Notes: generated by a model not told the origin, from the letters alone. Counted from the stretch's first letter, positions 12,955 through 36,984 are shown. The stretch is 64,000 nucleotides of DNA from Candidatus Moraniibacteriota bacterium (GCA_002747515.1 PDPP01000017.1:4392-68391), one strand, 5' to 3'. Program-made: numbers and translations.

Positions 12955-12987
12955 TATTAGAAAATGTAAAAAAATAATATATTTTTT

Positions 12988-13797: not shown

Positions 13798-13831
13798 AGT
13801 TAAATAAGTTTTAAATGATAATTTATTTACT

Positions 13832-18000: not shown

Positions 18001-18762
18001 TTGGATTATATTGATATTTATATTGATTATGGAAAAAATAACAATCCACAAAAAATAAGAAAGTCTGTACAAATTGGTCAGTGGGAAGATTTGTCTTTTG
18101 AAATATATCCGCCTCGTGATGCAGAAAAAATGACTATATATTTTTATTCAGGAAAGTCACAAAATTCTAATTACACACGTAGTGTTTATAAAAATATTAA
18201 GTTATCCTATAGTCTAAGGGGTTATTACAATAATCTGTTGGTTGAAAATGATGGGGATATCTCAGAGATAAAACCTGAAGTGTCTTTCAAAAAAGAAGCA
18301 AATTATCAATATAGGGTTTTTATTTCTTCAATTACTCGTCCTGAATTATTGAATTTTGTGGATTCTTATCATCCAAAATGGAATATTTTTGCCATTGGAA
18401 CAGATGGAAAAAAAGTGGGAATTAATGCTCAGCATGTAGAAGTCAATCGTTATTCAAATGGATGGGTAATAAACCCAAAAGAGATATGTGAAAACAATAA
18501 AAATTTTTGCGTTAAAAATGAAGATGGTAGCTATGACATGGAAATGACGATAGAATTCGTTCCACAAAGGTGGTTCTATTTAGGGTTGTTTATAAGTGGA
18601 ATAACGTTTATGAGCTTGATCGGATTTTTGGGATATGATTTTGTGAGGCGTCGCAGAGTGAAAAGGTATGGTTTGCAGCGTGGTGATGTGGGTGGAGAGA
18701 AGCGTTTTGGCGGTTCTGGTTCGCGTTCGCGGAGGTGTAGTACACGTGGTGTGCGACGGTAG
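15010..18762 (+). CDS. Giant polytopic membrane protein, possibly a GT-C-like glycosyltransferase, with a large extracytoplasmic region containing an internally duplicated ~150-aa beta-sandwich/CBM-like module
   Basis: The first ~430 aa contain about 12 TM helices. Two internal repeats share NWKKGDC..(K/R)(E/K)VFFN...HNAC. A C-terminal TM helix is followed by an Arg-rich tail. The gene is AT-rich and overlaps the upstream gene by 7 nt. Confidence 0.35.
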   Translation: MLIIMKLQDKDNIINIIVIIFFLFLPYFIFKGNFHIGGDDSHLFYIYPQLWIENVSNSTWTSYSSLGLFSNQYYYNPLLYILSFLHIFFISSYVIQNIIFSTIFIGGFVFLKNFLYVIIPQSRRYIVEINLSGFVYIFSPILLITPLRAYLANIWLIPLIPLLAFLFSKYYKTNHFKYNTLIGIVSFFFALAFNAVPWLLGVILPLISGVLIGVFFLKKARAYNLLKKFFLSGLLIGLTQLFWLFPFFMSVMSSHNSVGSKVFNDEFENTFIKEVLATSANTTILDPLRNFFHIGLQENFKWSTLQLYSNWYLKIDFLNYIFPIIIFLGIILSYKNLKRVYLVFLFPFIVSLFLFTVKIGLLKDFFMILGNIPGFVMFRNFYDKFSIGYVFFFSIIICFSLIFLKNSLNRSGIYKLILIVIAFVVLYDSKPLIFGDVFNDNIRGTNSVGQNIIIPQEYLNFMDHVSKVVPHSSNIFDVPFGNSAFTIIVGESGHSVFSGKSPVKLFSGINDFSGKLSFDKETSKIIYKFIRERKYYKLRNLLSIYNINYVFETNNIPFEILNSHLYSEKILKKQDEIFRDNMYGDLIFSSINKNYNLYSLKKNESGNSQIINFPKNIYLYEDVIDQRIRESLMSLVNSENVFVREKLHGINKLKKIEKLTEDSEYEDHKRSSILIVDELNVGLLSFEESDKNMYISNVYDYIFDKKNSKVFQENISSDSLIEINQKIYNIKDVDYIPIDTESSKIKLYTKSLDNILESSFDIYKNWKKGDCNAHDGNREVFFNFDVEKNSLVLKSQNNHNACTYSNIDIEKNEIYSLVFDYETNNDRITVFIELSDGEFIKREEKVNQKGQFNLTFKNPIDDDIKLYLYSGESSDKSITEYFNVRLFKYNFLKEFDDTDIAIDNLHSRYIPGNSLSKRMKIISPVVNNVDEFSNSFENWKKGDCGAINLEKKVFFNNISNNEIELKSSDGHNACMHKSISIDKNYKYDLSFQYMNKDLDYIDIYIDYGKNNNPQKIRKSVQIGQWEDLSFEIYPPRDAEKMTIYFYSGKSQNSNYTRSVYKNIKLSYSLRGYYNNLLVENDGDISEIKPEVSFKKEANYQYRVFISSITRPELLNFVDSYHPKWNIFAIGTDGKKVGINAQHVEVNRYSNGWVINPKEICENNKNFCVKNEDGSYDMEMTIEFVPQRWFYLGLFISGITFMSLIGFLGYDFVRRRRVKRYGLQRGDVGGEKRFGGSGSRSRRCSTRGVRR

Positions 18763-18776
18763 TGGTTGGTTTTTTT

Positions 18777-19070
18777 CTGGATTTCCGCTTTTGTGGGAAT
18801 GATGAGGGTATGGTGGGAATTGTTGGATTCCCGCCTCCGCGGGAATGACAGGGGGTATGGGAATGACAAGGGGGACGCGCGGGGGTGACATAGACTATAG
18901 TGGAAACCTCTGGATTCCCGCCTTCGCGGGAATGACACAGTGCGATATAGTGGTAGTTTCTGGATTCCCGCCTTCGCGGGAATGACAGGGGGGTATGGGA
19001 ATGACAAAAGGGGGCGCGGGAATGACAAGGGAGGTGCGGGGTGACGTATGAGATGTGGGGTTTGTAATGT
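18777..19070 (+). repeat. Repeat island A: clustered copies of the 28-nt palindrome CTGGATTCCCGCC(T/C)(T/C)CGCGGGAATGACA with GGGAATGACA(R)GGG sub-repeats
   Basis: Core copies lie at 18824, 18910 and 18960, and a degenerate copy at 18777. The island is GC-rich within an AT-rich genome and the units are 50-95 bp. Confidence 0.8.
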
Positions 19071-19098
19071 TATGTTGTTGAATATATAATGATCTTTT

Positions 19099-19674
19099 AT
19101 GGATATAATGAGAAAACAGAAAAATACGGTTGATTTGCGTGGTGGTGTGTTACGACAAGAGCAGAGGCATCGACATGGCACGCGGCGATCTTTTGATACG
19201 CAAAAGCATGCAAATGCGATATCTCATAGGAAATATATGGATGCGCAATCATATACAGTATCACAGAAGCAACAACAAGAAAGAGTGAAAAAAAATGGGC
19301 AGAATACCAAAAAATTTCAATTATTGCAAAAGAAACATTCTGTTTTATATAATAGTATTGGTGGAGTTGTGTTTTTTTGTGTGATTATAGGTCTTTTTGT
19401 TTTTACGGAGTTGACGAGTATTGATATTTTCTTTTGGACATTTTTTCTGTCGCTTTTTTATTGGCATATTGATAGTCGTGTTTCAATTGGTGGAGCTTTG
19501 GCGTGTCTTTTGGCAATTCCAGTTTTACTTATTGCAGAAAATAACTTTGGATATATCAATGGTGGTGTGTGGGCAGAAGAAGTTGCGGTGTGGGCATATT
19601 TTTTTCTCGTGATTGGTGTGGTGAAACAAATCTATGAATATATATGGGAGTCAAAAAGACTGAAGTCATCATGA
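19099..19674 (+). CDS. Hypothetical protein with a basic N-terminus and C-terminal TM helices, embedded between repeat islands
   Basis: ORF of 191 aa with a hydrophobic C-terminal half and no recognisable motif. The true start may be internal. It could also be a non-genic ORF. Confidence 0.25.
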   Translation: MDIMRKQKNTVDLRGGVLRQEQRHRHGTRRSFDTQKHANAISHRKYMDAQSYTVSQKQQQERVKKNGQNTKKFQLLQKKHSVLYNSIGGVVFFCVIIGLFVFTELTSIDIFFWTFFLSLFYWHIDSRVSIGGALACLLAIPVLLIAENNFGYINGGVWAEEVAVWAYFFLVIGVVKQIYEYIWESKRLKSS

Positions 19675-19688
19675 TGTTTTTTGTGGTT

Positions 19689-19895
19689 CTCTGGATTCCC
19701 GCCTTCGCGGGAATGACAAAGGGGAGCGCGGGAATGACAGGGGGGACGCGCGGGGGTGACATAGGCTATAGTGGAAAACTCTGGATTCCCGCCTTCGCGG
19801 GAATGACAAAGGGGAGCGTGGGAACGACAAAAGAGACAAAGATGATGTTTTTTATAATTATGTTATCCCCGCGAAGGCGGGGATCCAGGAATTTT
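19689..19895 (+). repeat. Repeat island B: two forward palindrome copies (19691, 19781) followed by a ~50-bp module containing the inverted-orientation core (ATCCCCGCGAAGGCGGGGATCCAGG, 19866-19890)
   Basis: Identical in layout to island A units (gacgcgcgggggtgacatagNctatagtggaaa). The island ends 7 nt before the GIY-YIG start codon. Confidence 0.8.
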
Positions 19896-19897
19896 TT

Positions 19898-20182
19898 ATG
19901 AAACAGTATTATGTATATATTTTAGCTAGTCAGAAAAATGGTACTTTGTATATTGGAGTGACGAGTAATTTGCAAAAAAGAGTTTTTGAACATAAAGAAA
20001 AGTTGGTTGCAGGGTTTACAGAAAAGTATAATGTAGATAAATTAGTGTATTTTGAACAAACAGGTGATGTGCAATCTGCACTTTTGAGAGAGAAGCAATT
20101 GAAAAAATGGAATAGGGATTGGAAATTGAAATTAATTGAAGAAAAAAATCCGCAATGGAATGATTTGTATGATTTTTTGTGA
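19898..20182 (+). CDS. Small GIY-YIG domain nuclease (UPF0213/YhbQ-like stand-alone GIY-YIG protein)
   Basis: YVYILASQKNGTLYIGVTSNLQKRVFEHK matches the GIY-YIG catalytic motif. The 94-aa size is typical of stand-alone GIY-YIG proteins. Confidence 0.7.
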   Translation: MKQYYVYILASQKNGTLYIGVTSNLQKRVFEHKEKLVAGFTEKYNVDKLVYFEQTGDVQSALLREKQLKKWNRDWKLKLIEEKNPQWNDLYDFL

Positions 20183-20184
20183 TT

Positions 20185-20512
20185 TTCTGGATTCCCGCAT
20201 GCGCGGGAATGACGAAGTGGACGTGGGAATGACAAGGAGTATAGTGAAAGTCTCTGGATTCCCGCATGCGCGGGAATGACAGGAAGGGTGCGGGAATGAC
20301 ATGGGAGACGTGGGAATAATATGATGTGCGTGAATGAGACGGGGTGTGTGCATGAATGACATGGATTATAGTGAAAGTCTCTGGATTCCCGCCTGCGCGG
20401 GAATGACAGGATGGGTGCGGGAATGACAGGGGAGGGTACGGGAATGACAAGGGGATGTAAGGATGATGTTTTTTATAATTGTGTCATCCCCGCGAAGGCG
20501 GGGATCCAGGGG
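20185..20512 (+). repeat. Repeat island C: three forward palindrome copies (20187, 20254, 20381; loop variant CATG/CTG) plus a terminal ~50-bp module with the inverted core (20486-20510)
   Basis: The island begins 3 nt after the GIY-YIG stop codon. Its terminal module ggatgatgttttttataattgtgtcatccccgcgaaggcggggatccagg is near-identical to 19843-19890 (upstream island B). Confidence 0.8.
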
Positions 20513-20521
20513 GTGTAATGA

Positions 20522-22228
20522 ATGACTAAGAGTGTTATGAAAAAATTTATTTTGAAATATCAGCATGGTATTTTTGCGGTTGTGGGTGCAGTTGTTGTGC
20601 TTTGGCAGATGCTTTTGCCAGGTTATGTTTTGTTGCTTGACTGGATTGCTGGTCCGAGTAATGTATTTTCGTATTATACGCTTTCGGATATTATGCATGC
20701 GCCAAGTACAGGGTTTATATATTTTTTGCAAATGTTTTTATCTGCATGGTTTGTCCAAAAAATATTTTTATTTGGTCTGTTTTTTGTCTTGTTTTATTTT
20801 CCTTTAAAATTTCATCCAAAGGAGATTTTTGATGCAATAGCACAGGATAAACCTACAATTATAAGCGTAAAATATTTTACATCAGTATTTTTTGCATGTA
20901 ATCCTTTTGTATATGAACGGTTTTTAGCGGGACAATGGCGTGTGATTATTGGCTATGCATTTATGTTTCCAATGGTTTATTATCTTTTTAAATTTTGGAA
21001 TAATCGATCATGGCATGCGATGGTCGGTGCTTTTGCAACATTATTTTTTGTGGGTATTTGGTCTGTACATTTTCTTGTGATTGGCGGAATTATGTTTTTG
21101 ATCTATGTATCTATTTTGTTTGTGGCAAATTTGAAAAATAAGGGTGTATTATGGGATGTGAGCAAAAAACTTCTCTTTGGTATTCTTGTTTTTATGGCGT
21201 TTAGCTCTTATTGGATTGTGCCATATATGTTGCAAAATGATAAAACAGTGGAGTATTTCGATGCTAGTCATCAAAAAGCTTTTGCTACAGCAATAGATCC
21301 AAAAGTTGGTGCTTTGGGCAATGTGATAACGCTGCGTGGTTTTTGGGGAGAAAGTCATGCTTGGGCGGATCAATTTGTAATGCCAGGTGATAACACTGTT
21401 GTTTTTTATATGAGTTTTTTTGTGATTATCACACTTAGTATTATTGGTATACGCATACTATGGCGTGATGTGAAAAATCGAGGGTTTGCAGTGTTTTTGG
21501 GTGTTTTTTTTATGTTGAGTGTGATTTTTTCTGCAGGAATTAGTGTAAATTTTTTGTGGAAGATTAATGAATGGCTCTTTGAGAATGTTTCGTTTTGGTC
21601 AGGATTTCGTGATACACAAAAATGGTCCGGCATAAGCGCAATGATTTATGTGCTATTGGCAAGTGTAGGTGTGAATTTACTTGTGCATAGTTGCAAAAAT
21701 CGTCTTGCACAAAAGATAGTATTGGGAGTGTGTTTATTGTTGCCAATTTCACTTGTTTCTAATATGCCTTTTGGATTTAGTGGACAAATTCACTCAGTGC
21801 AGTATCCAGAGCAGTGGCATAAAGTAAATGTTATTTTGAAAAAAGATGACGAATGCAAAATGATTTTTTTGCCATGGCATCAGTATTATTCAGTAAAGTT
21901 CAATAGTGGTATGCTCATTGCTAATCCAGCAAAAAAGTTCTTTGATTGCATTGTTGTGACCGGACATAATACAGAGCTAGGAGGCATTGCCTCAATTGCA
22001 GGAGATGTGAAACACTATCATGAAATGGAATCATTTGTTATGTCAAACAATCCTCAAGATGAATTTATAGAAAAAGGTATTGCGATGTTGCGACAAAATA
22101 ATGTGCGTTATATCGTGTGGACCAATGATTTAGAAGGACATGATTTATATCGTTATCCGTTTCTGCACTCTAGTCAATTGGAAGAGATTTATAATGGTGA
22201 CGGCATTGTGATGTATAAGATTAAATAG
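20522..22228 (+). CDS. Polytopic membrane protein, hypothetical (possible GT-C-like or YfhO-like glycosyltransferase)
   Basis: The protein is 568 aa with more than 10 TM helices in the N-terminal two-thirds and a soluble C-terminal domain. No specific catalytic motif was recognised. Confidence 0.35.
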   Translation: MTKSVMKKFILKYQHGIFAVVGAVVVLWQMLLPGYVLLLDWIAGPSNVFSYYTLSDIMHAPSTGFIYFLQMFLSAWFVQKIFLFGLFFVLFYFPLKFHPKEIFDAIAQDKPTIISVKYFTSVFFACNPFVYERFLAGQWRVIIGYAFMFPMVYYLFKFWNNRSWHAMVGAFATLFFVGIWSVHFLVIGGIMFLIYVSILFVANLKNKGVLWDVSKKLLFGILVFMAFSSYWIVPYMLQNDKTVEYFDASHQKAFATAIDPKVGALGNVITLRGFWGESHAWADQFVMPGDNTVVFYMSFFVIITLSIIGIRILWRDVKNRGFAVFLGVFFMLSVIFSAGISVNFLWKINEWLFENVSFWSGFRDTQKWSGISAMIYVLLASVGVNLLVHSCKNRLAQKIVLGVCLLLPISLVSNMPFGFSGQIHSVQYPEQWHKVNVILKKDDECKMIFLPWHQYYSVKFNSGMLIANPAKKFFDCIVVTGHNTELGGIASIAGDVKHYHEMESFVMSNNPQDEFIEKGIAMLRQNNVRYIVWTNDLEGHDLYRYPFLHSSQLEEIYNGDGIVMYKIK

Positions 22229-22290
22229 CACGGTATTATTGACTAGTGAATTTAAATGAGATAGGCTCAAATTATAATTTTTTATGATTT

Positions 22291-23010
22291 ATGATGAAGA
22301 AAAGAAAATATAAATGGCTAAAAATACTTGTAATTATCGCAAGTATTGGTGTGATTACTTTTGTGGTTTATAACAAAATGCCACAACATAGCAAAGAAGC
22401 TATCATTAACCGATTAACAAGAGGTATTATTGAAACAAAGCAACCAGTAACAGTTGAGAAAAAAGTTGTTGATGCTGTTAACACTAACAGATCACGAACA
22501 GTGAGATTTTACATGCCTTCAAAAGGCGATGTGCAAAATGATAAGCAAAAATTTTTAGCAAAGGGCATAATGTATTCAAAAAATGGCATACTCGTAACAG
22601 CAAGAGGGTATTTCCAAGAAGGAATTTCGTATGAAATTGCGATCCCAGGACAAAAAGAACATGTTGTAGCAGTGCCATTTAATGTTGGAAAAAATTTTGT
22701 TTTTTTTGATATTAAACAAAACATGCCCTTTGTTGCAGAATTAAGTAATTCACCAGTTTCTGTTGGTGATACGGTTGTAGCAATTGGAGGCGAGGAAGAA
22801 GATCAGATTGCAACAGGCGAAGTACGTTTGGTTGAAAGAACTGATCATGACTCTTTTATTGTGACAACCATCCCTTCGCATCAAATGACAATTGGATCAC
22901 CACTTATGAATGAAAAGAGAGAAGTGGTTGGACTATATTTTAAAAAGAGCGTTGATAATAAAGCGGTTTTTGTTTCTGTGCGAGGTGTTGACAAAATAAT
23001 AAATAAATAG
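22291..23010 (+). CDS. Membrane-anchored hypothetical protein, possibly a degenerate trypsin-like (HtrA-type) protease domain
   Basis: N-terminal TM helix. TIGSPLMNEKREVVGLY resembles the GNSGGPL...G(V/I)(N/G) region of S1C proteases. The match is weak. Confidence 0.3.
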   Translation: MMKKRKYKWLKILVIIASIGVITFVVYNKMPQHSKEAIINRLTRGIIETKQPVTVEKKVVDAVNTNRSRTVRFYMPSKGDVQNDKQKFLAKGIMYSKNGILVTARGYFQEGISYEIAIPGQKEHVVAVPFNVGKNFVFFDIKQNMPFVAELSNSPVSVGDTVVAIGGEEEDQIATGEVRLVERTDHDSFIVTTIPSHQMTIGSPLMNEKREVVGLYFKKSVDNKAVFVSVRGVDKIINK

Positions 23011-23102
23011 ATAATTATAGTATATTGTGCGACACTATGTAGTGTGGTATAGTAAATACATATTTAATAAAATAATTATATAAAATATAAAATATAAAAT
23101 AT

Positions 23103-23933
23103 ATGCAAGAAAAGAAAGTGATTAATGTTATGGCAAGTTTGTGCGTTGTAATCAGTATGATGTTTGCATCAACTGTATTCGCAGCTTTAGAAGATGGGGG
23201 AGAAGAGATAATTGAAATTGGTTATGGGGGTAATGATCCAGCATGTACCATGTATGCTGAACCAGATACAATTAATGCAGGGGGAGGAACAACATTACAT
23301 TGGGATGTAAATGAATATACTGTTCGTGCATATCTTCATCCAAAAGGATCGGGGAGTTGGATGCAGGAAGTGCCACTTGATGGATCATGGTGGATTTCTG
23401 GTATTACAGATAGTCGCGTATATACTTTGACAGTGGAAAATGAAGAAGGTGTCACAGCAACATGTGATGCACCTATTACAGTAAATGAAGGAGTAAATGA
23501 AGAACTAACATGTGAGATGTATGCAGATCCATCAACAATTGCACAGAATGGCGGCACAAATCTCGTGTGGAGTTCTACGGGAAATGTGGTGAATGCAAAA
23601 TTGCATCCAACAGGATCAACGTCATATTTTGCAGATGTGAGCGCAAACGGTTCATGGTGGATTTCTGGCATTTCAAATAATCGCAGTTATAGTGTGACAT
23701 TATGGGATGCACAAGGAAATACAGTGACATGTGATGCACCGATTTCTGTAATAGAGGAACAAGAAGAACCTGTGTGTTATGATTGGGACGGAGATGGCTG
23801 GGGATGGGATGGTGAAAAAGGTTGTAAAGTAGAAGCTGTGACAGAAACTGCTGAGTGCTATGACTGGGACGGAGATGGCTGGGGATGGGATGGTGAAAAA
23901 GGCTGTAAAGTGGAGTCTACCGTACAACATTAA
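23103..23933 (+). CDS. Secreted repeat protein: two ~95-aa Cys-framed repeats plus two near-identical 20-aa C-terminal DGDGWGWDGEKGCKVE repeats
   Basis: A signal peptide is present. Repeats begin C(T/E)MYA(E/D)P(D/S)TI and end TCDAPI(T/S)V. The C-terminal tandem DNA repeats (23774-23833 and 23843-23902) are about 90% identical. Confidence 0.5.
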   Translation: MQEKKVINVMASLCVVISMMFASTVFAALEDGGEEIIEIGYGGNDPACTMYAEPDTINAGGGTTLHWDVNEYTVRAYLHPKGSGSWMQEVPLDGSWWISGITDSRVYTLTVENEEGVTATCDAPITVNEGVNEELTCEMYADPSTIAQNGGTNLVWSSTGNVVNAKLHPTGSTSYFADVSANGSWWISGISNNRSYSVTLWDAQGNTVTCDAPISVIEEQEEPVCYDWDGDGWGWDGEKGCKVEAVTETAECYDWDGDGWGWDGEKGCKVESTVQH

Positions 23934-23945
23934 AGAATGCATTAT

Positions 23946-23975
23946 AAAAAACACCCATGTAGATATGGGTGTTTT
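23946..23975 (+). terminator. Rho-independent terminator
   Basis: Hairpin acacccat-gtagat-atgggtgt followed by tttttttg. Confidence 0.6.
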
Positions 23976-24057
23976 TTTGATATATGAAAATAAGTATTTT
24001 GTATGGTTTTTTGTTTTTATTTTGTTGTAAGAAATAATGTTTTGATGCAGTCTTATA

Positions 24058-24280
24058 GTGAAAGTTGCATCATTCTCTGACAAAAGTTATCACTTTTAAA
24101 TTCGTTGTGCGACAGAAGGATATGAGAAGAATATTATTGAATTTTTTCAATAATTATTAGAACTCATCGAGTGTAAATGCTGTCATGAAGTCTGCTTTTT
24201 GATAAAAGTGGAGAATTAATGTGGCAACACGAAATATTCGTCCTTAAATTATTTTTTGAGGATTTTTTATTTTTAAAACA
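24058..24280 (+). promoter_or_regulatory. Degenerate duplicate of the ileS T-box leader (paralogous to 33088-33310), probably a non-functional relic
   Basis: About 80% identical over ~230 nt to the ileS leader, including the GA/K-turn region aggatatgagaagaa, the ATC specifier context (aactcATCg), and the terminator hairpin plus T-run. The T-box consensus is damaged: AATTAATGTGGCAACACG versus the canonical AATTAAGGTGGTACCACG. Confidence 0.55.
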
Positions 24281-24305
24281 ATAGGTATAATATTTAAAAA
24301 AGTAG

Positions 24306-24367
24306 AAATAAAAAAGGAAGATTATACACTTACAATACTGTATAAAACTGACATAAAATAAAAAAAT
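24306..24367 (+). pseudogene. 3'-terminal relic of a paralog of the CE4 deacetylase gene (encodes ...KEDYTLTILYKTDIK*)
   Basis: A 39-nt exact match (cacttacaatactgtataaaactgacataaaataaaaaa) to 8906-8944, the last codons and stop of the deacetylase gene. The upstream codons are also similar (KEEYPLT vs KEDYTLT). Confidence 0.6.
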
Positions 24368-24513
24368 GTGTATGTAATTGCACAGAAATAGAGAATGTTG
24401 TACAATATATATCGGAGGGGTGAGTCTCAAAAAAACAAGCGTTGGACAAGGTCGTAGGCGCTAAAGAGAATCAATCTATCCGCGTAAATCAGTTAAGCAG
24501 GTACTTACACGTT

Positions 24514-24834
24514 ATGGAAAGAGATGCACAATTCGTCGAAGAAGTAGTGAAGATGCTTGTCGACAATCCTGAGGACGTGAAAGTTGATCGTAAAGTTGAC
24601 GAGATGGGCGTACTGATCACTTTGGATGTAAATCCAGAGGATATGGGTATGGTTATCGGTCGCGAAGGTTCTACTGCAAAAGCGCTTCGCACATTACTTC
24701 GTGTAGTGGGTGCGCGTAATAATGCACGTGTGAACTTAAAGATCAATGAGCCAGAGGGTTCTGAACGCCCAGAGAAAAAAGAAGAGGGTGATCAGAAAAC
24801 TCTTGATGAAGTTGTCGGGGATATTCAGATCTAA
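24514..24834 (+). CDS. khpA: KH-domain RNA-binding protein (KhpA/YlqC-like) with an acidic/charged C-terminal extension
   Basis: MERDAQFVEEVVKMLVDNPEDVKVD...EDMGMVIGREGSTAKALRTLL matches the KhpA family pattern (LVDNPEDV; GxxIGxxG KH motif). The ORF is open from 24442, but family alignment favours start at 24514. Confidence 0.6.
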   Translation: MERDAQFVEEVVKMLVDNPEDVKVDRKVDEMGVLITLDVNPEDMGMVIGREGSTAKALRTLLRVVGARNNARVNLKINEPEGSERPEKKEEGDQKTLDEVVGDIQI

Positions 24835-24885
24835 ATTTGAATTCACAACATGAAACGTGATCAAAGGATCGTTTCAATGAAAAAA

Positions 24886-24915
24886 CCATCTGACTTGATG
24901 GTTTTTTTATTTTTG
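24886..24915 (+). terminator. Rho-independent terminator
   Basis: aaccatc-tgacttg-gatggtt followed by tttttttatttt. A second weaker hairpin lies just upstream (gaaacgtgatcaaaggatcgtttc). Confidence 0.55.
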
Positions 24916-25106
24916 AGTTATGTTTATCATAATAGTTTTGGGATATTTTGCAGAAGTTTTTGTATTATTGGAATATTAGGTAATTATGAAACAATATGAA
25001 AATTTGGTGAATTTGTCTTTGTGTGTGGTTATATTTTGGCATAAAATATTTTTCATAAAGTATTTGATTTCGTGACAAGAAATATGTTTTTAATTAAAAT
25101 AATATT

Positions 25107-25754
25107 ATGGCAAATTTCAAAACACACATTAGCTGGGGAGTTGTACTTGCTTTTGTCATGGCAGTTGGTTTTTTGATTTGTTGGAATATTGATATGAGAG
25201 TTTTCATCCTTGTTTTTTCTTCAGCTTTGATTGGTTCTTTTTTGCCAGATGTTGATTCAGATAGTGGTGTACCGTTTCGCATATTATTTTATACACTTAG
25301 TGTAGTTTTGACATTTTTTTCCGTGCATGTACTTATTGCAAAGGAGGTTGTAGGTTTTTGGTTTTTTGTTCTTATACCGCTTACAGTTTTTATCTTTGTG
25401 CGATTTGTTTTGGGAGATATTTTTAAAAAATTTACAAGACATAGAGGGATATGGCATTCGATTCCAGCAGCGATTCTTGCAGGACTTGTGACGATGGTGA
25501 TTGTGTATGAATTGGATTTTTTGAATCGAGGATCATCAGCAGTGCATATAGGTGTGGCGATGTTTGCTGGTTATATGGCACATTTATTTCTCGATGAGGT
25601 TTATGCAAGTGTAAATTTTTCTGGAAAATTATTTAAGCCAAAAAAATCTCTTGGTACTGCGATGAAATGGTATTCGTCTTCACTGATTGTGACAGTGTTT
25701 GTGTATAGCTGTCTTCTAATCTTCTGGTTATTTGCTCTTAAAATACTATTGTAA
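25107..25754 (+). CDS. Membrane-bound metal-dependent hydrolase-like protein (YdjM/DUF457-like)
   Basis: 4-5 TM helices with His/Asp-containing loops (FLPDVDSDSG; RHRGIWHS; AHLFLDE) resembling the YdjM family. Confidence is moderate. Confidence 0.4.
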   Translation: MANFKTHISWGVVLAFVMAVGFLICWNIDMRVFILVFSSALIGSFLPDVDSDSGVPFRILFYTLSVVLTFFSVHVLIAKEVVGFWFFVLIPLTVFIFVRFVLGDIFKKFTRHRGIWHSIPAAILAGLVTMVIVYELDFLNRGSSAVHIGVAMFAGYMAHLFLDEVYASVNFSGKLFKPKKSLGTAMKWYSSSLIVTVFVYSCLLIFWLFALKILL

Positions 25755-25990
25755 AAACGGTAGTGAGTGCATGTATAAGATTATTGATTCAAAGATTATA
25801 GTAACGTGTGAAGTACCTATGCATTTTTTTTGTTTTACTTTTGAGCGGTGTCATTGTAGTATGGATACGATTTTGTTAAAGATTTGTTTTGTAATACATC
25901 TAGTTAAATATATCGATGAAAAATTTTTTGGTTTAAAGTGTGTTGTGATACTTTCATTTGTATTTGATAGTACGTATAAAATAAAAAAAT

Positions 25991-27013
25991 ATGAAGAGAA
26001 AAAAGATTGTGACAATTGGTGGTGGAACAGGATCATTTACATTGCTTAATGGAATTAAAGATTATCAATATGACATTACAGCAATTGTGACAATGGCTGA
26101 TGATGGAGGTTCTACTGGTGTTCTTAGAGATGAACTTGGTGTACTGCCTCCTGGAGATGTTCGTCAATGTCTTGTTGCGTTATCGGATTCTTCTATGAAA
26201 TTGCGTGAGCTTATGAATTATCGATTTGAAGAAGGTGGTTTAGAAGGGCATAATTTTGGCAATCTTTTTCTTTCAGCGCTAGAAAAAATTAATGGTGGGT
26301 TTTCGGAAGGTGTTGATCAAGCGATTGAGATACTTAATGTGCGTGGCAAAGTTGTGCCGGTGAGCGAGGGAGATATGCGACTCAAAATTCGACTTAATGA
26401 TGGGCGTGTTGTAGTTGGAGAAAAAGAGTTGGATGATAATGAAGATGTGCGTAGTACAGGGGTACATGATATTAAACTGGCAAAGATGGTGCATGCAAAT
26501 AAAAAGGCAGTAAAAGCGATTGAGGTGGCAGATTTTATTGTTATTGGACCGGGTGATCATTATGGTAGTATTGTGCCAAATTTACTTGTTGGTGGTATTA
26601 AAAAAGCGATCAAAAAATCACATGCAAAGGTGATATTTGTTGCACCGTTGACGAATAAAAAGGGTTTGACTGATGCATATACCGTCAGTGCCTATGTCAG
26701 TGATATTGAAGATCAGATTGGCATAGGTCAAATAGATTTTGTGATTTGTAATACAAAAGTTCCTCATAAAGATATTCTTGCGCGTTATGAAAAACAAGAG
26801 GGAAAAGATTCTCTTGTTGTGTGTGATGAATATAATCTTAATAACTGCAAAGTTGTAAAAGGTGATATTTTACAAAAAGAAACAACAAAAAACATAAAAG
26901 GAGATAAAATTGCACATACGCGTGCATTTATTCGTCATGATAGTCATAAACTTGCACGTGCAATTGCACTCATTACAGAGTATAATGATTATAGGACATT
27001 TGCTATAGAGTAA
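25991..27013 (+). CDS. YvcK/CofD-like protein (gluconeogenesis factor / UPF0052 family)
   Basis: IVTIGGGTGSFTLLNGIKDY...AIVTMADDGGSTGVLRDELGVLPPGDVRQCLVALS is the hallmark N-terminal region of the YvcK/CofD family. Confidence 0.7.
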   Translation: MKRKKIVTIGGGTGSFTLLNGIKDYQYDITAIVTMADDGGSTGVLRDELGVLPPGDVRQCLVALSDSSMKLRELMNYRFEEGGLEGHNFGNLFLSALEKINGGFSEGVDQAIEILNVRGKVVPVSEGDMRLKIRLNDGRVVVGEKELDDNEDVRSTGVHDIKLAKMVHANKKAVKAIEVADFIVIGPGDHYGSIVPNLLVGGIKKAIKKSHAKVIFVAPLTNKKGLTDAYTVSAYVSDIEDQIGIGQIDFVICNTKVPHKDILARYEKQEGKDSLVVCDEYNLNNCKVVKGDILQKETTKNIKGDKIAHTRAFIRHDSHKLARAIALITEYNDYRTFAIE

Positions 27014-27017
27014 TTTT

Positions 27018-28784
27018 ATGAATGAAAAAAAATTACAAAAATTTCAATATGATCCAAAAGGATTTATTTTTTTTGCTGCAAGGCAAAAAGTATGTCTCGG
27101 TATTATCATATTTATTTGTGTGATTATTGCGCGTGGTGTGTATACAATTGTGCCGTTTATTTCAAAACAAATTACTGATTTATTGACACATTTTAGTGGA
27201 AATTATGATGATTTATATAGGTTGATTTTTTTGCTTTTGATTGCAATGATTGTGAGTATGTTGATATATCGTATTACTGGAATTATCGCAACGATATGGA
27301 TACCATATATTGAAAAATATGCAGCACAAATATCTTTTGATTATTTGATGAGACATGGCGCACAATACTTTTCTAATCGACTCAGTGGAAAGTTGCAAAA
27401 TAAGATATTTAATATCTCACAAGCCATTCATAATATTTTTCCAATTATTTTTTGGAATCTCACAGATTTATGTGTAAAGTTATTTTTTTCTATATTTCTT
27501 GCATTTACAGTGCATTTTTATGTAGGTTGTGTTTTTTTAATCTTTTCTGCAATAACTGTAATTTATAGTATTTTTGTTTCACGAAAACTTGCTAAATATT
27601 CACAAATTTGTGCAGAATCTGCATCAGAATCACGAGGTGTCATGATAGATGTTATTAGTAATATTTTGGCAGTAAAACAAAATGTTGCATTGGAGAGAGA
27701 ATCGCATAATGTGGATAGTGCTTTAGAGGATTATCGTAGAAAGAGTCAAAAAAATTGGAATTTTTTTGAGTGGTCATTACTTTTTAATAACATCATTATT
27801 CTCACGATGTTTTTTGTTGTTTTGATTGTTTCTGTACATTTTTTGCGAGAGGGCGTTGCAACGCCTGGTGATATCGTGATGCTCTTGGTGATTATGATGG
27901 GACTTTATGGTGAATTGCAATTTTTAAGTATGTCGCTTAATCGATTTATGGAGCAATATGGACAATTGCGAGAAGGATTAGAAGAAGTATTTGCGCCATT
28001 TGATATTGTTGATCGTTCTTATGAATGTAAGGATGGTAAAATGTCAAAAGGGGACATTCTGTTTGATCATATCAATTTTAAGTATGAAGACGATGATTCT
28101 CAAGCAGTATTTAAAGATTTATCATTTTCGATACCTTCAGGACAAAAAGTTGGACTTGTGGGAGAGTCTGGTGCAGGAAAGTCAACTTTTGTAAATTTGC
28201 TTTTGCGATTTGTCGAGCCAAATGATGGAGTAATTTTAATTGATGGATGTGATATTTCAAAAATAAAACAAGACACCTTACGAAATGTAGTGGCATATGT
28301 ACCGCAAGATTCGATGCTTTTTCACAGGACGCTTCAAGATAATATTAAATATTCTGATCCACACGTGTCTGATGAGGAAATGATTATTGCAACAAAGCGA
28401 GCGCATGCAGAGAAATTTATAGAAGATTTACCAAAAAAGTATAACACTCTTGTAGGAGAGCGTGGTGTAAAGCTTTCTGGTGGACAAAAGCAACGTGTAA
28501 TGATTGCGCGTGCTATGCTCAAAAAATCTCCAATTCTTGTACTTGATGAAGCAACAAGTGCATTGGACTCTGAGTCAGAAAAGCTAATTCAAGATGCACT
28601 TGAAAAACTAATGGAAGATCGTACAACTATTGTAATTGCACATAGATTGAGTACGCTTAAGAAAATGGATCGTATTGTCGTATTTGATAATGGAAAAATC
28701 ATTGAGGATGGCACGCACAAAGAATTACTCGAGAAAAGAGGAAAATATTATGATCTCTGGCAATATCAAACAGGAGAAATGTAA
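27018..28784 (+). CDS. ABC transporter, fused permease/ATP-binding protein (MsbA-like exporter)
   Basis: Six N-terminal TM helices. Walker A GESGAGKST, ABC signature LSGGQKQR, and Walker B ILVLDEATSALD. Confidence 0.8.
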   Translation: MNEKKLQKFQYDPKGFIFFAARQKVCLGIIIFICVIIARGVYTIVPFISKQITDLLTHFSGNYDDLYRLIFLLLIAMIVSMLIYRITGIIATIWIPYIEKYAAQISFDYLMRHGAQYFSNRLSGKLQNKIFNISQAIHNIFPIIFWNLTDLCVKLFFSIFLAFTVHFYVGCVFLIFSAITVIYSIFVSRKLAKYSQICAESASESRGVMIDVISNILAVKQNVALERESHNVDSALEDYRRKSQKNWNFFEWSLLFNNIIILTMFFVVLIVSVHFLREGVATPGDIVMLLVIMMGLYGELQFLSMSLNRFMEQYGQLREGLEEVFAPFDIVDRSYECKDGKMSKGDILFDHINFKYEDDDSQAVFKDLSFSIPSGQKVGLVGESGAGKSTFVNLLLRFVEPNDGVILIDGCDISKIKQDTLRNVVAYVPQDSMLFHRTLQDNIKYSDPHVSDEEMIIATKRAHAEKFIEDLPKKYNTLVGERGVKLSGGQKQRVMIARAMLKKSPILVLDEATSALDSESEKLIQDALEKLMEDRTTIVIAHRLSTLKKMDRIVVFDNGKIIEDGTHKELLEKRGKYYDLWQYQTGEM

Positions 28785-28922
28785 ATATATGTACGAATCT
28801 CGTTTTGCATTTTTAATTAAAGAGTTATAAAAATTTTATTGATTTTGATGATTTGTGAAAATAAAAAACCTTACATGAGTTTGTATCATTTGTTTGATAA
28901 CAATAGTCATGTGAGGCGTGAC

Positions 28923-29282
28923 TTATGAAGCTTTTACGGATTTTGGTGGAATGATATCTGCACAAAAGCGTTTCTCCCATTCTTGTAACCACATGTAGTT
29001 GTATAAATAAGAAATTTTTTCTTTCTTATCCATATGTACAATGATGTGTGGGAAATTGTTGCGGATAGCATTTTTACGATGTTTGTATCTTGTTGTACTG
29101 ATGAATTTACAAGATTCAAAAGTATCAATCCAGTAACGTGTAGCAGTTTGACTGATGTTTGCTTTTGTAGCAATATCAGGAATCAATGCTTCCTTTAATC
29201 CAATCTCAACGAGTGCCATGAGCGTTGTTGCTACGCGGTAGGCATTCTCACTGTTAAAAAGAACTTCTCTTTGTTCTTTCAT
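28923..29282 (-). CDS. Small HTH DNA-binding protein (putative transcriptional regulator), divergent from glmS
   Basis: Likely HTH region IPDIATKANISQTATRYWI. The start codon was chosen at ATG 29280-29282, which has a strong RBS (aaaaggagaaaaaagATG). The ORF track extends it to 29381 without an RBS. Confidence 0.4.
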   Translation of the reverse strand: MKEQREVLFNSENAYRVATTLMALVEIGLKEALIPDIATKANISQTATRYWIDTFESCKFISTTRYKHRKNAIRNNFPHIIVHMDKKEKISYLYNYMWLQEWEKRFCADIIPPKSVKAS

Positions 29283-29462
29283 CTTTTTTCTCCTTTTGTT
29301 TTTTTGATGAAAATATACATTAACATGACATTGTATTTTTGTCAATGGATTTTGCAGGCAATACCATGATATACTTGGCACAGTCGTTAAATAGAAAGAT
29401 TCTTGTTCACAAGATTTTGTTTTTAAGTGAATGAGTTATGTCTAAAATGTAATTATAAATAT

Positions 29463-31289
29463 ATGTGTGGAATTGTAGGATTTATAGGAAAAAAAGATAA
29501 CGCATATGATGTGCTTTTGGATGGATTGAAACGGTTGGAATATCGTGGGTATGATAGTTCTGGAATGTGTTTGTTATCTAATGATAAAGTCAAAACATTT
29601 AGATCTGTGGGAAAAATTTCTTCGCTCGAAGAAAAAATTGGTAGTAGACATATAGAGTCACATATGGGTATTGCACATACACGGTGGGCAACACATGGTA
29701 AGCCAAGTGTAAAAAATGCACATCCGCATAGTAGTGGAAAAATTCATCTTGTACACAATGGAATCATAGAAAATTATCAACAGTTAAAAAGCATGCTTGT
29801 GGAGAAGGGGCACAAGTTTACGTCTGATACTGACAGTGAAGTTGTTGCACACTTAATTGCACAAGAGAATAAAAAAAGTGGATTTGAAGAATCTGTATAT
29901 AATGCAATGGCTCAAATTCACGGAGCATACGCACTCGTGATTTGTCATGAGGATGAACCAGAAAAAATGATTGCAGTACGCAACAGTTCTCCACTTGTTA
30001 TGGGTGTTGGAAAAAATGAATATATTCTTGCATCTGATGCATCAGCTATTGTTCAACATACAGATCGTGTCATTTATCTTGATGATGGGGAATTAATTAT
30101 TCTGACACCAACCGAATATAAAATAACAACTTTACGTGGAAAGAAAAAAAATAAAAAAGAGCATATTCTTGAATGGACTGATGATGAAGCACAAAAAGAA
30201 GGATATAATCATTTTATGATTAAAGAGATTTTTGAACAGCCGCATGCTATAGAGGACGCAATTCGTGGTAGGATGATTTTGTCTGATGGATTAGCTCGAT
30301 TAGGTGGTCTTAAAGACGTGGAAAAGCGTTTGCGAAATATTAATAGAATTGTGATTGTGTCATGTGGCACATCATATTGTGCTGGACTTGTGGGTGAGTA
30401 TATGCTTGAAGAATATGCTGGTATTTCAACAGAGGTGGAGTATGCATCTGAATTTCGTTATCGCAAACCACTTATTGATAAAAATACTGTGGTGATTGCA
30501 ATTTCGCAGTCTGGTGAAACTGCAGATACACTTGCAGCGATTCGTGAAGCAAAAAATAAAGGTGGTTTGACATTGGGCATTGTTAATGTTGTTGGTTCTA
30601 CAATTGCACGTGAAACTGATGCAGGAATATACAATCATGCAGGTCCAGAAGTTGCTGTTGCAAGTACAAAGGCGTTTACATCACAACTTTCGATACTAGC
30701 TCTGCTGACGGTGTATCTCGGTCGTCAAAGAAATATGTCAATGGTTATGGGTAAGAGAATACTTGCAGAGTTACAAAGAATTCCAAAAAAAATTAATACA
30801 ATACTTGAAAGCGAAAAGGAGATAAAAAAAATTGCAAAAAAATATATAAAATATAACAGCATGTTTTATTTGGGGAGAAAATATAATTTTCCAATTGCTT
30901 TGGAAGGGGCAATTAAAATAAAAGAAATATCATATGTTCATGCAGAGGGATACGCTTCTGGTGAAATGAAACATGGTCCAATTGCACTTATTGATAAAAA
31001 TTTCCCTTCTGTCATTATTGCCGTAAAAGATAGTGTGTATGAAAAAACATTGTCAGCGATTGAGGAAGTAAAAGCACGTGATGGAAAAGTGATTGCTATT
31101 ACAACAAAGGGTTCGAAAGAGGTAGAAAAAATTGCAGATCATGTGTTATATATTCCAAAGACATTGGAGATGCTTACGCCACTGCTTTCTATAATTCCTT
31201 TACAGCTTTTAGCATATTATACTGGTGTAGAAAAAGGTTTTGATGTAGATAAACCACGTAATCTTGCTAAAAGCGTTACTGTAGAATAA
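29463..31289 (+). CDS. glmS: Glutamine--fructose-6-phosphate aminotransferase (isomerizing)
   Basis: N-terminal MCGIVGFIG, with Cys2 as the nucleophile, so the start is set at 29463 rather than 29427. Two SIS domains and the C-terminal ...KSVTVE. The gene is about 608 aa. Confidence 0.85.
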   Translation: MCGIVGFIGKKDNAYDVLLDGLKRLEYRGYDSSGMCLLSNDKVKTFRSVGKISSLEEKIGSRHIESHMGIAHTRWATHGKPSVKNAHPHSSGKIHLVHNGIIENYQQLKSMLVEKGHKFTSDTDSEVVAHLIAQENKKSGFEESVYNAMAQIHGAYALVICHEDEPEKMIAVRNSSPLVMGVGKNEYILASDASAIVQHTDRVIYLDDGELIILTPTEYKITTLRGKKKNKKEHILEWTDDEAQKEGYNHFMIKEIFEQPHAIEDAIRGRMILSDGLARLGGLKDVEKRLRNINRIVIVSCGTSYCAGLVGEYMLEEYAGISTEVEYASEFRYRKPLIDKNTVVIAISQSGETADTLAAIREAKNKGGLTLGIVNVVGSTIARETDAGIYNHAGPEVAVASTKAFTSQLSILALLTVYLGRQRNMSMVMGKRILAELQRIPKKINTILESEKEIKKIAKKYIKYNSMFYLGRKYNFPIALEGAIKIKEISYVHAEGYASGEMKHGPIALIDKNFPSVIIAVKDSVYEKTLSAIEEVKARDGKVIAITTKGSKEVEKIADHVLYIPKTLEMLTPLLSIIPLQLLAYYTGVEKGFDVDKPRNLAKSVTVE

Positions 31290-31341
31290 TAGTATAATTA
31301 AAAAATATCATTTTTCATTTTACATTTAAATATTTTAAAAT

Positions 31342-32133
31342 ATGGAGATGACAATTATGCAGGCAATTGTGTTCGGTATCGTTCAAGGTGTTACAGAGTT
31401 TTTGCCGATATCTAGTTCTGGGCACATTGTATTGGCACAATATTTTTTTGGCATTGAGGATCCGCAAATGAGTTTTGTTTTCGCATTACATATGGGAAGT
31501 CTTTTGGCAGTGGTGATGTATTTTTGGCGTGACTGGTTAAATCTCGTGCATATTAAAAAAGATATGAAAGTTTATCAAGATAATCCACATCTGTTATGGT
31601 TAATTGTTGTCGCAACAATTCCTTCTGTTGCAGTTGGTTTATTTATTGGGGATTTTGTGGAAAATTTAGTTTTTTCTAAAGTTGTTGTTGCATTTTTGAT
31701 TTTGTGTGGAAGTGTTGTTTTGTTTGTATGTGACAGAATATTTAGTAAAAAAAGAACATTGAAACATATCAATGTAAAAAATTCTTTTATTATCGGACTT
31801 TTTCAAATTGTTGCATTGATACCCGGAGTATCTCGTAGTGGAATGACAATTTCTGGTGCACGGATGTGCGGATTTAATCGTGTGGATGCAGCACGTTTCT
31901 CATTTCTTATCTCTGTACCAATTATTATTGGAGCAGGTATTTTAATGATTAAAAGTGCTGTATTTTCTGAATTTACTGTGCAAGTTTTTGTAGGCACAGT
32001 TGCTTCGTTTATTGTATCAATTTGCACAATTCATTATTTTCTTGCACTTATTAGAAAAGTAAGTTACGCTATATTTTTATACTATTCAATAGTATTTTTT
32101 ATTATTACTTGTTGTGTTGTTTATCTGGGGTAA
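31342..32133 (+). CDS. uppP: Undecaprenyl-diphosphate phosphatase (BacA/UppP)
   Basis: QAIVFGIVQGVTEFLPISSSGHI and SRSGMTISGA are the conserved UppP motifs. Eight TM helices. The start could instead be ATG 31357. Confidence 0.75.
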   Translation: MEMTIMQAIVFGIVQGVTEFLPISSSGHIVLAQYFFGIEDPQMSFVFALHMGSLLAVVMYFWRDWLNLVHIKKDMKVYQDNPHLLWLIVVATIPSVAVGLFIGDFVENLVFSKVVVAFLILCGSVVLFVCDRIFSKKRTLKHINVKNSFIIGLFQIVALIPGVSRSGMTISGARMCGFNRVDAARFSFLISVPIIIGAGILMIKSAVFSEFTVQVFVGTVASFIVSICTIHYFLALIRKVSYAIFLYYSIVFFIITCCVVYLG

Positions 32134-32199
32134 GGGTTTTTTGATATGATACAAAATATCTATAAAGAAAAAATATGTGTTATTGCATAGAATTATATT

Positions 32200-33051: not shown

Positions 33052-33089
33052 TTAGTTTGCAAAAAGTAACATTTTACTGTAACCTTGTA

Positions 33090-33310
33090 GTGAAAAATGA
33101 TAAAATCCTCTGACAGTGAATATCATCATTGAATTTGTGTGTAGACACAAAAGGATATGAGAAGAACGTTGTTGAAACAATTATTAGAACTCATCGGGTA
33201 AGCCCGTAAACGCTGTAATGAAGTCCGCTTTTTTGTAAGGTGGAGAATTAAGGTGGTACCACGAAATATTCGTCCTTAAATAATTTTTAAGGATTTTTTA
33301 TTTTTATAAA
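33090..33310 (+). promoter_or_regulatory. T-box riboswitch leader, Ile-specific, controlling ileS
   Basis: Stem I GA motif (aggatatgagaagaa). ATC specifier at 33191-33193. T-box sequence AATTAAGGTGGTACCACG at about 33246-33263. Terminator hairpin tccttaaa...ttaagga followed by a T-run ending about 33310, just 9 nt before the ileS ATG. Confidence 0.75.
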
Positions 33311-33318
33311 ACAATAAT

Positions 33319-36969: not shown

Positions 36970-36984
36970 CTTCTGTTCCTTAAG

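Follow-up and report, generated by a model that had tools for sequence, protein, structure and literature searches.

The DNA analysed here, called the window, is a stretch of 64,000 nucleotides from a Candidatus Moraniibacteriota MAG (CPR/Patescibacteria), and two of the proteins encoded in it are identical to the NCBI MAG entries CR972_02305 and CR972_02365. A conserved operon of two PMT-GH8 fusion proteins, a GT2 and a polysaccharide deacetylase is followed by a flippase, glycosyltransferases and further genes up to a hypothetical gene at 23103-23933, then by a run of genes from khpA to folD, the T-box leader of ileS and, directly 3′ of this leader, ileS itself (33319-36258). Two orphan ileS 3′ ends lie downstream of ileS in the same window. 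Here, we focused on the intergenic region between the gene 23103-23933 and khpA, where a degenerate second copy of the ileS leader is found next to a second copy of the deacetylase 3′ end (Table 1).

Table 1. Coordinates of genes, repeats and leader elements in the window
Feature	Position	Strand	Basis and remarks
PMT-GH8 fusion proteins (two), GT2, polysaccharide deacetylase	345-8940		Pfam
3′ end of the deacetylase gene (7315-8940), left member of the direct repeat	8891-8958	+	Core 8906-8944; Pfam Polysacc_deac_1
Block bracketed by the repeat cores, 15.4 kb	8945-24326	+	
Flippase, five glycosyltransferases, CBM protein, unknown proteins, trypsin-like protease	9022-23933		Pfam
Intrinsic terminator hairpin of the upstream gene (23103-23933), then T-run	23946-23977	+	RNAfold -17.6 kcal/mol for 23935-23990; inverted repeat
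Remnant of leader promoter region	24025-24059	+	TTGTAA -35-like; aligned to 33057-33091; promoter assigned by eye
Pseudo T-box leader, degenerate ileS-type	24060-24275	+	Rfam and family covariance models
Specifier hairpin AAAAGU-UAUC-ACUUUU, ATC at 24089-24091	24082-24097	+	Predicted fold
Stem II, outer helix AUGAG/CUCAU intact	24122-24167	+	
Stem IIA/B (F-box) remnant	24168-24179	+	R1 alignment
Stem III hairpin, intact	24191-24212	+	Two changes, both pairing-preserving
Degenerate T-box sequence AAUGUGGCAACACG	24218-24231	+	
Intact terminator, 9-bp hairpin (24240-24248 / 24255-24263), then U-tract	24240-24275	+	
Start-less pseudo-ORF, 24 codons and TAA	24287-24361	+	About ileS codons 1-8 in frame with the last 16 deacetylase codons
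Apparent illegitimate junction at A-run microhomology	24307-24315	+	BLAST segments overlap at 24312-24315
Copy of deacetylase 3′ end: last 16 codons, stop and ~15 nt	24312-24378	+	Exact 39-nt core 24327-24365
khpA promoter TTGCAC-17-TACAAT	24378-24406	+	Promoter scan lists TGCACA-16-TACAAT; -10 by eye
khpA 5′ UTR (24416-24513) and CDS (24514-24834)	24416-24834	+	Pfam KH_KhpA-B, E 2e-22
KhpA, YdjM, CofD-like, ABC, GlmS, UppP, FolD	24514-33051		Pfam; then true leader and ileS
True ileS T-box leader	33057-33318	+	Promoter, short Stem I (AUC in hairpin loop), Stem II, IIA/B, Stem III, T-box, terminator

Two repeated fragments upstream of khpA

We found that 24025-24315 aligns with 33057-33351 at 75% identity over 306 columns (BLAST, E 1e-50), at an offset of 9,032 nt, and that the similarity takes in the full leader, its terminator and the first ~8-11 codons of ileS. 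It begins at a -35-like hexamer, TTGTAA in the copy and TTGCAA in the true leader, and no remnant of folD was detected to the left of the copy, the homology starting exactly at the promoter unit. The putative -10 of the true leader, TAACCT, corresponds by eye to CAGTCT at the homologous site of the copy; a consensus promoter scan, which also missed AU-rich terminators, returned no strong leader promoter for either the true leader or the copy. At the other end, the start of ileS, ATG GCA TTT AAA AAA GTA GAG, has become ATA ATA TTT AAA AAA GTA GAA at 24287-24307.

The second fragment, 24312-24378, matches 8891-8958 at 88% identity (BLAST, E 2e-15). Within it the match is perfect over 39 nt, 24327-24365 being identical to 8906-8944 at an offset of 15,421 nt, while the arms on either side of this core have diverged to ~65-70% identity (differences at 4 of 11 and ~5 of 14 positions). 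The difference between the perfect core and the arms gave a Fisher p of 7e-5 with both arms and of 1.4e-3 with the left arm alone. The two fragments meet in frame at a CAAAAA microhomology, which joins ileS codon ~8-11 to deacetylase codon -16 (ileS ...AAATCAAAAA; deacetylase gene ...CACAAAAAG).

Both similarities are far above chance, no further homology was detected in the flanks of either repeated piece on any side, and the minus-strand ORFs spanning the region (24164-24430 and 23700-24083) gave no Pfam match. The first-pass annotation of this DNA had described a second ileS leader copy at 24058-24280 that kept the Ile specifier ATC and the terminator and had its T-box consensus mutated from GGTACC to GGCAAC, followed by the last codons and stop of the deacetylase gene with a 39-nt exact match, neither fragment matching the khpA gene. 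Each of these points was confirmed, and the alignment of the leader proved wider than had been described, reaching into the ileS codons.

The ileS T-box family and the lesions of the copy

No report of T-box riboswitches in CPR/Patescibacteria was found in the literature searched. We gathered ileS loci from metagenomes, and a T-box core was present upstream of ileS in ~28 of the 81 loci. With the Rfam model RF00230 the true leader scored 53.5 bits and the copy 26.5 bits, the leaders of eight relatives scored 34-70 bits, all under the gathering score of 93, and a scan of the whole window at that score returned nothing, the true leader included. Since the relatives' leaders and the true leader all fall below the cut-off, Rfam alone cannot separate functional from decayed leaders. 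Two covariance-model modules were built from the ileS leaders of 17 relatives, neither of the window sequences being used; R1 covers Stem II and Stem IIA/B, and R2 covers the T-box, antiterminator and terminator. The R1 score was 59.0 bits for the true leader and 21.7 bits for the copy, with 25 relatives at 31.7-77.6 bits; the R2 score was 57.4 bits for the true leader and 39.1 bits for the copy, with 26 relatives at 51.4-76.4 bits. The copy was the second-best match in the window with both modules (E 1.6e-3 for R1, 1.8e-5 for R2) and scored below every relative in both, outside the functional range.

Covariation supports the structure of the family at Stem II, at helix A2 and at the terminator. 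Compared with 21 relatives, the copy differs at 10 of the 55 positions that are invariant or at least 90% conserved (18%) and at 32 of the 131 variable positions (24%). Conserved sites were thus altered about as often as variable ones, indicating that purifying selection on the copy is gone. Its descent shows in significant homology along the full length of a bona fide T-box leader; judged by the covariance models, the copy is a T-box by descent and not a functional member of the family, in keeping with the decay seen in the first-pass annotation.

Part of the architecture of the copy is preserved. The ATC-A specifier is retained at 24089-24092 (33122-33125 in the true leader), so that Stem I offers both the specifier and the following purine. 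The specifier stem has been rebuilt relative to CAGUGA-AUAUCA-UCAUUG (33114-33131) by changes on both sides of three pairs, all still paired, and its predicted loop is shorter in the copy, with only 4 nt (UAUC), than the loop of 6-7 nt predicted for the true leader and for that of a distant relative, L092. The distal hairpin of Stem II is longer in the copy through an 8-nt insertion and carries one compensated pair. The predicted terminator is as stable in the copy as in the true leader (-9.2 and -8.8 kcal/mol, RNAfold), and long unbroken identical runs lie on either side of the T-box core.

The T-box core itself and Stem IIA/B are damaged. The IIA/B hairpin is invariant in the leaders of 21-26 relatives, and half of it is deleted in the copy, where CGGGUAAGCCCGUAA has become CGAGU------GUAA by a 6-nt deletion between 24172 and 24173 and a G-to-A change. 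The T-box core reads AAGGTGGTACCACG in the true leader (33250-33263) and AATGTGGCAACACG in the copy; in the relatives it is GGTGGTACC(A/G)CG in 25 of 26 and GGTGGTATCGCG in L092. When the 7-nt bulge UGGNACC and helices A1/A2 were examined, AAGGUGGUACCACG was found to have changed to AAUGUGGCAACACG, the corresponding conserved form in the relatives being GGUGGUACC(A/G)CG (25/26) and GGUGGUAUCGCG (L092). Three substitutions account for the core: G24220T breaks a pair of helix A1 (U-C mismatch), U24225C affects the UGGN base expected to pair with the tRNA discriminator, N being C and not U, and C24227A turns the bulge ACC into AAC, so that UGGUACC now reads UGGCAAC. Besides the IIA/B deletion, the lesions at family-invariant sites comprise the change of AAGGUGGUACC to AAUGUGGCAAC. 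The predicted antiterminator has weakened from -5.7 kcal/mol in the true leader to -2.3 kcal/mol in the copy, where it is no longer the MFE of its window.

Deletion of the IIA/B pseudoknot of an ileS T-box lowers tRNA binding ~1,200-fold, and ileS-type T-boxes with a short Stem I need IIA/B for tRNA binding (PMC7583486). In the copy, the start codon ATG has changed to ATA and what comes after the leader is no more than a stub of 24 codons lacking a start, so that no gene is left to control. Given that half of IIA/B is deleted, that the three T-box and A1 substitutions fall at family-invariant positions, that an antiterminator predicted to be weaker faces a terminator predicted to be intact and that no gene is left, we conclude that tRNA sensing has been lost.

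The pairing pattern suggests that the copy once worked. On the pairwise alignment, the helices of the true leader comprise 51 pairs, four of which have changed on both sides and are all still paired (the three in the AUC hairpin and the one in distal Stem II). Six of the pairs with a one-sided change keep their pairing, five are broken, and another five are lost to gaps. The rough chance of such retention is ~0.04 for the double and ~0.02 for the single changes, as estimated from two sequences only; the observed value was equalled in 35 of 500 shuffles, and the polarity set with the distant outgroup L092 is uncertain. Double and single changes that retain pairs indicate that the ancestor of the copy was functional, and the copy probably descends from a leader that worked for some time after its split from the resident one, and has decayed since. 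We also considered whether the 5′ part of the copy is older than its 3′ part, which would make the copy itself a mosaic, and did not rely on this idea: the third comprising promoter and Stem I is 63% identical and the remainder 81%, or 75% and 89% with gap-tolerant alignment, so that the result varies with gap treatment (63-75% vs 81-89%).

khpA has its own promoter and a ~100-nt 5′ UTR directly after the deacetylase fragment. The two closest relatives, L001 and L002, have both in conserved form (UTR identity 81% and 73%, KhpA identity 91% and 87%). In these two relatives a desulfoferrodoxin-like gene, not a deacetylase, lies upstream of khpA, and the relic is wholly absent; more distant relatives have promoter-like sites of their own ~100 nt upstream of khpA. 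An R2 search of 80 related khpA loci detected no T-box near khpA, its sole match being the ileS leader of L032, 8 kb downstream, and none of the 80 loci has the relic or a deacetylase upstream. No aaRS gene was found upstream of khpA in the relatives examined. Given the conserved promoter and UTR, the lack of a T-box in the relatives and the strong terminator of the upstream gene, khpA appears to be an autonomous unit. This largely answers the question, raised in the first-pass annotation, of whether the pseudo-leader regulates khpA: in L001 and L002 the promoter and UTR are kept without the relic, and expression of khpA would come from its own predicted promoter and not be under relic control. 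At most, the relic would add a second, constitutive terminator to khpA.

It is very improbable, in our judgement, that the element still functions, be it as a tRNA-responsive khpA leader (for Ile or another tRNA), as an insulating terminator or as a small RNA that binds the tRNA-Ile anticodon. The intact terminator, Stem II, Stem III and AUC-bearing hairpin and the long identical runs around the mutated core would suit such a role, and pairing of the bulge UGGC with a tRNA end that carries G73 is conceivable. Against it stand the scores below every functional leader, invariant sites altered about as often as variable ones, the destroyed IIA/B and an antiterminator predicted to be weaker, the promoter of khpA itself behind a strong terminator of the upstream gene, and the absence of the element from 80 of 80 related khpA loci. 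Relic RNA, if still transcribed, would end at 24264-24275.

The 15.4-kb block and the origin of the relic

The deacetylase repeats bracket a block of 15.4 kb that has the ileS-leader copy as its right end. In addition to the flippase, the five glycosyltransferases, the CBM protein, the trypsin-like protease and the hypothetical gene 23103-23933, it encodes a GIY-YIG protein. Three genes of the block (12988-18762) have a low GC content of 26-28%, and all 13 copies of the palindrome GGATTCCCGC-N3-CGCGGGAATGAC present in the window lie inside it. Searched by Pfam, the block ORFs of at least 80 aa encode no integrase or recombinase, although small or degraded genes could escape this search, and no tRNA or other classic integration target is present.

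The corresponding loci of relatives were compared. In L166 the deacetylase is again the last gene of this operon (two PMT-GH8, GT2, deacetylase), and the genes that come after it are unrelated; in some relatives the ileS leader is immediately preceded by glycosyltransferase genes. Look-ups of the exact KhpA, IleS and deacetylase proteins gave no contigs. The closest deacetylase homologues reach only 42-43% identity, and in the loci found, homologues of the gene 23103-23933 are followed by rpe or unrelated genes, never by ileS. Neither a donor genome nor an empty-site relative was found among the khpA, ileS, deacetylase and 23103-23933 homologue loci, so that we infer the origin of the block, and with it the order of events, from the features of the locus itself.

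On these features we lean towards the interpretation that 24025-24377 is a non-functional recombination scar, the right-hand border of an inserted 15.4-kb block. A perfect 39-nt core with diverged arms is poorly explained by uniform decay and fits an att site, a homologous crossover or a conversion tract. In the course of events that we propose, the polysaccharide block would have entered downstream of the conserved PMT-GH8/GT2/deacetylase operon, with the deacetylase 3′ end serving as the homologous anchor and the crossover falling in the perfect core. On the other side, an illegitimate join at CAAAAA would have connected incoming DNA, at about ileS codon 8-11, to deacetylase codon -16, and the route may have been homology-facilitated illegitimate recombination (HFIR) or a Campbell-type insertion of a circular fragment. 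The leader copy would then be a passenger from a related donor whose block lay upstream of ileS; it would have lost its gene at the insertion and have been decaying since. A leader homology that starts at the promoter unit, with no folD remnant, fits insertion, and the low-GC genes, the repeats confined to the block and the compensated divergence of the leader lend indirect support to a foreign origin. Points against this interpretation are the failure to find a donor or an empty site among the loci compared, the desulfoferrodoxin-like gene that precedes khpA in its closest relatives, and the rpe gene, rather than ileS, behind homologues of 23103-23933.

The first-pass annotation had read the locus as a scar of past duplication and deletion next to a deleted deacetylase paralog. 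The scar and its decay stand, while the deleted paralog gives way to an insertion border, which better fits the 39-nt core, the diverged arms and the 15.4 kb between the repeats. Duplication within the genome followed by deletion, leaving an equally non-functional relic, is in our estimation rather unlikely, though it has real points in its favour. It might have been tandem: duplication of the stretch that starts in the deacetylase tail and reaches ileS codon ~11 would create exactly a junction of the ileS 5′ end with the deacetylase tail, and the redundant gene copies would then have been lost. Alternatively, a long-lived paralogous pair, an extra ileS and an extra deacetylase gene, might have disappeared in a single deletion at a microhomology. 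The polarity of the junction is the one expected of a tandem-duplication or circle junction. Since the nearest relative of the copy among the sampled leaders is this genome's own leader, an in-genome origin is possible, and since most differences in the core region lie on the branch of the copy, simple decay of a local duplicate would also fit, the core divergence of ~10.5% resembling the 12% of the deacetylase tail. However, a tandem duplication would need at least two more deletions ending exactly at the leader and khpA promoters, with no folD or flippase remnant; uniform decay would not give a perfect 39-nt core beside its diverged arms; and the promoter and Stem I, at 63% identity and with compensated pairs, are too diverged for a dead copy of the same age.

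Site-specific integration of an island at the deacetylase 3′ end, with 8906-8944 as attL, 24327-24365 as attR and the ileS-leader fragment in the P arm, is improbable. Exact direct repeats with diverged arms do flank 15.4 kb of accessory-type genes, as expected of att sites, the reading frame of the target gene is restored, and the content looks mobile, with the GIY-YIG gene and the 13 palindromic repeats. Yet neither an integrase or recombinase nor a classic target was detected, within the search described above, and an ileS leader with ileS codons would be left unexplained in an island arm. We give hardly any weight to an assembly artefact, that is, a chimeric contig mis-joined at short repeats of co-occurring strains. 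The window does come from a MAG (NCBI locus tags CR972_*) and the repeat does hold a 39-nt exact match. Against an artefact, mis-joins collapse repeats and do not leave two diverged copies on one contig, the two parts of the relic are 75% and 88% identical to their sources rather than identical, both run without a break into unique sequence on each side, and a repeat of 39 nt is shorter than typical final assembly k-mers.

A more specific form of the insertion reading is doubtful at present: the scar may record how a CPR bacterium gained a 15-kb polysaccharide island with no integrase involved, by taking up DNA of a relative and joining it through one homologous crossover in the 39-bp identical stretch and one illegitimate join, with the donor's ileS riboswitch trapped as a passenger. 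If this is true, then, taken together with the two orphan ileS 3′ ends, gene gain in Moraniibacteriota would have been anchored repeatedly at ileS and at the deacetylase operon. A further, less probable element of this reading is an orphan leader still transcribed as a ~215-nt terminated RNA that would bind the tRNA-Ile anticodon.

Relation to known systems

A dead regulatory element alone changes nothing in what is known of T-boxes or of khpA, and it is ordinary, though informative on rearrangement in a tiny genome. The locus offers a clean, datable junction for the proposed insertion of accessory polysaccharide genes next to conserved operons, in a group, the CPR, whose horizontal transfer mechanisms are mostly inferred and not observed. 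For annotation, a T-box-like match upstream of khpA at this locus is to be read as a pseudo-leader, not as a regulator. The analysis also exposes a family of ileS T-box leaders in Moraniibacteriota, with a short Stem I and a transcription terminator, that the Rfam gathering score misses.

The element order of the copy is that of the ileS T-boxes with Stem II and the IIA/B pseudoknot, of the Nocardia farcinica and Mycobacterium tuberculosis type (PMC7583486): it starts with AUC-A in Stem I and passes through Stem II, which has the motifs GAGAAGAA / AGUAGAAC, the IIA/B position and Stem III to the T-box, and ends with a terminator that overlaps the antiterminator. The same plan fits the resident leader (33057-33318) and 25-26 relatives, with covariation in Stem II and helix A2. 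The copy departs from it in lacking half of IIA/B, in its altered bulge and A1 mismatch, and in having no gene behind it. The Moraniibacteriota family as a whole, and with it the true leaders, differs from the Rfam T-box in falling under the gathering score. It also differs from the transcriptional T-boxes reviewed in PMC7583486, which generally require a long Stem I, in that a short Stem I is combined with a transcription terminator.

HFIR has been described in the transformation of Acinetobacter, S. pneumoniae and P. stutzeri, and arrays of orphan gene ends in the displacement of Rhs, CDI and T6SS effectors (PMC3240628, PMC5361080). As in these systems, one side of the present locus is homologous, the deacetylase 3′ end, and the join beside this anchor is a microhomology join; DNA that would be foreign is trapped beside a conserved gene with a duplicated gene end, and the two orphan ileS 3′ ends belong to the same picture. 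The event proposed here is read from sequence, not seen in an experiment, and the passenger is a riboswitch leader rather than a toxin/immunity module. The att repeats of elements that integrate at gene 3′ ends share with this locus the perfect 39-bp core, the diverged arms, the 15.4 kb in between and the restored target end; they differ in that no integrase or excisionase was detected in the block and in that a protein-coding gene of a CPR genome would serve as the target.

Leaders of ileS in Moraniibacteriota

We found that the T-box leaders of ileS in Moraniibacteriota (the set from the relatives' loci L081-L156, with examples in the table) form one family, with Stem II, Stem IIA/B and a U-tract terminator. 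A short Stem I, carrying AUC in its terminal hairpin loop, was observed in the leader of the window and in those of L092, L088, L083 and L032. A long Stem I is generally required by transcriptional T-boxes (review PMC7583486). All of the Moraniibacteriota ileS leaders scored under the Rfam T-box gathering score (34-70 versus 93 bits), and a leader was found at only about 28 of 81 ileS loci.

In six relatives (L032, L081, L082, L083, L085 and L088), a small gene intervenes between ileS and its upstream leader, the two being 560-970 nt apart; the small gene of L032 is a Trp_repressor family member (PF01371, E 1.4e-16). A two-gene unit may thus be under the leader's control there.

Positions of leaders, repeats and associated genes
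Feature	Sequence	Positions
ileS T-box leader	window	33057-33318
ileS T-box leader	L092	3991-4263
ileS T-box leader	L088	3251-3566
Leader and small gene ahead of ileS	L032	13086-13943
Region holding ileS 3′-end copies	window	36259-39725
Last ~65 codons and stop of ileS	window	36070-36265
Downstream ileS-end copies	window	37021-37228; 38397-38595
khpA promoter and 5′ UTR	window	24378-24513
Counterpart in khpA relative	L001	9870-10000
Counterpart in khpA relative	L002	9868-10000
PMT-GH8 paralogs	window	345-3020; 3025-5910
First DNA repeat of PMT-GH8 pair	window	1983-2153; 4897-5067
Second DNA repeat of PMT-GH8 pair	window	2367-2467; 5281-5381
Hypothetical protein gene	window	23103-23933
Its C-terminal repeat units	window	23770-23833; 23851-23914
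Palindrome clusters	window	11715-12446; 18775-20510
GT4 glycosyltransferase ORF	window	11278-12954
GIY-YIG nuclease gene	window	19898-20182

Gene ends after ileS and the khpA 5′ UTR

The last ~65 codons of ileS with the stop codon, which contain an internal promoter-like motif (TTGACA-17-TATACT), recur twice 3′ of the gene. The two copies are 91% alike to each other and show 73% nucleotide and 56-57% amino acid identity to ileS; the small ORFs that follow each copy had no Pfam match. Since recO is immediately 3′ of ileS in about 17 relatives, this 3.4-kb stretch has the appearance of an orphan gene-end array produced by successive insertions.

The khpA promoter and a GC-richer 5′ UTR of ~100 nt are common to the window and the two closest relatives (L001 and L002). 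The 5′ UTR follows the pattern GGAGGGGTGA...GGTCGTAGGCGC...TATCCGCGTAAATCAGTTAAGCAG, and no Rfam family matched the region. A short reading frame across the 5′ UTR is broken by a TAA in the window, so the region seems more likely to hold an RNA element than to encode a peptide.

In the relic upstream of khpA, the mutated ileS start region carries a perfect -10 hexamer (TATAAT, 24286-24291) about 90 nt ahead of the promoter that belongs to khpA itself. This hexamer lacks a convincing -35 on its upstream side and is probably incidental.

Repeated genes and palindromes

Two adjacent paralogs each encode a fusion protein in which a PMT-type glycosyltransferase domain is joined to a GH8 glycoside hydrolase domain. 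The two genes have internal DNA repeats in common, and the pair is also present in L166, a relative's locus. A hypothetical protein of 276 aa carries two near-identical C-terminal repeats, CYDWDGDGWGWDGEKGCKVE, and matched no Pfam family. It has many metagenome homologues (up to 75% identity), usually with a trypsin-like protease gene in front.

A GC-rich palindrome, GGATTCCCGC-N3-CGCGGGAATGAC, occurs 13 times in the window, with none expected by chance, and all copies are confined to the 15.4-kb polysaccharide gene block. The palindromes at 18.8-20.5 kb lie on either side of a GIY-YIG nuclease gene. Those at 11.7-12.45 kb are in frame within the GT4 ORF, whose two domains are separated by the CHSR...NPE peptide repeats that these palindromes encode. 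Rickettsia-type palindromic elements insert into coding genes, and the 13 palindromes may be of a similar kind.
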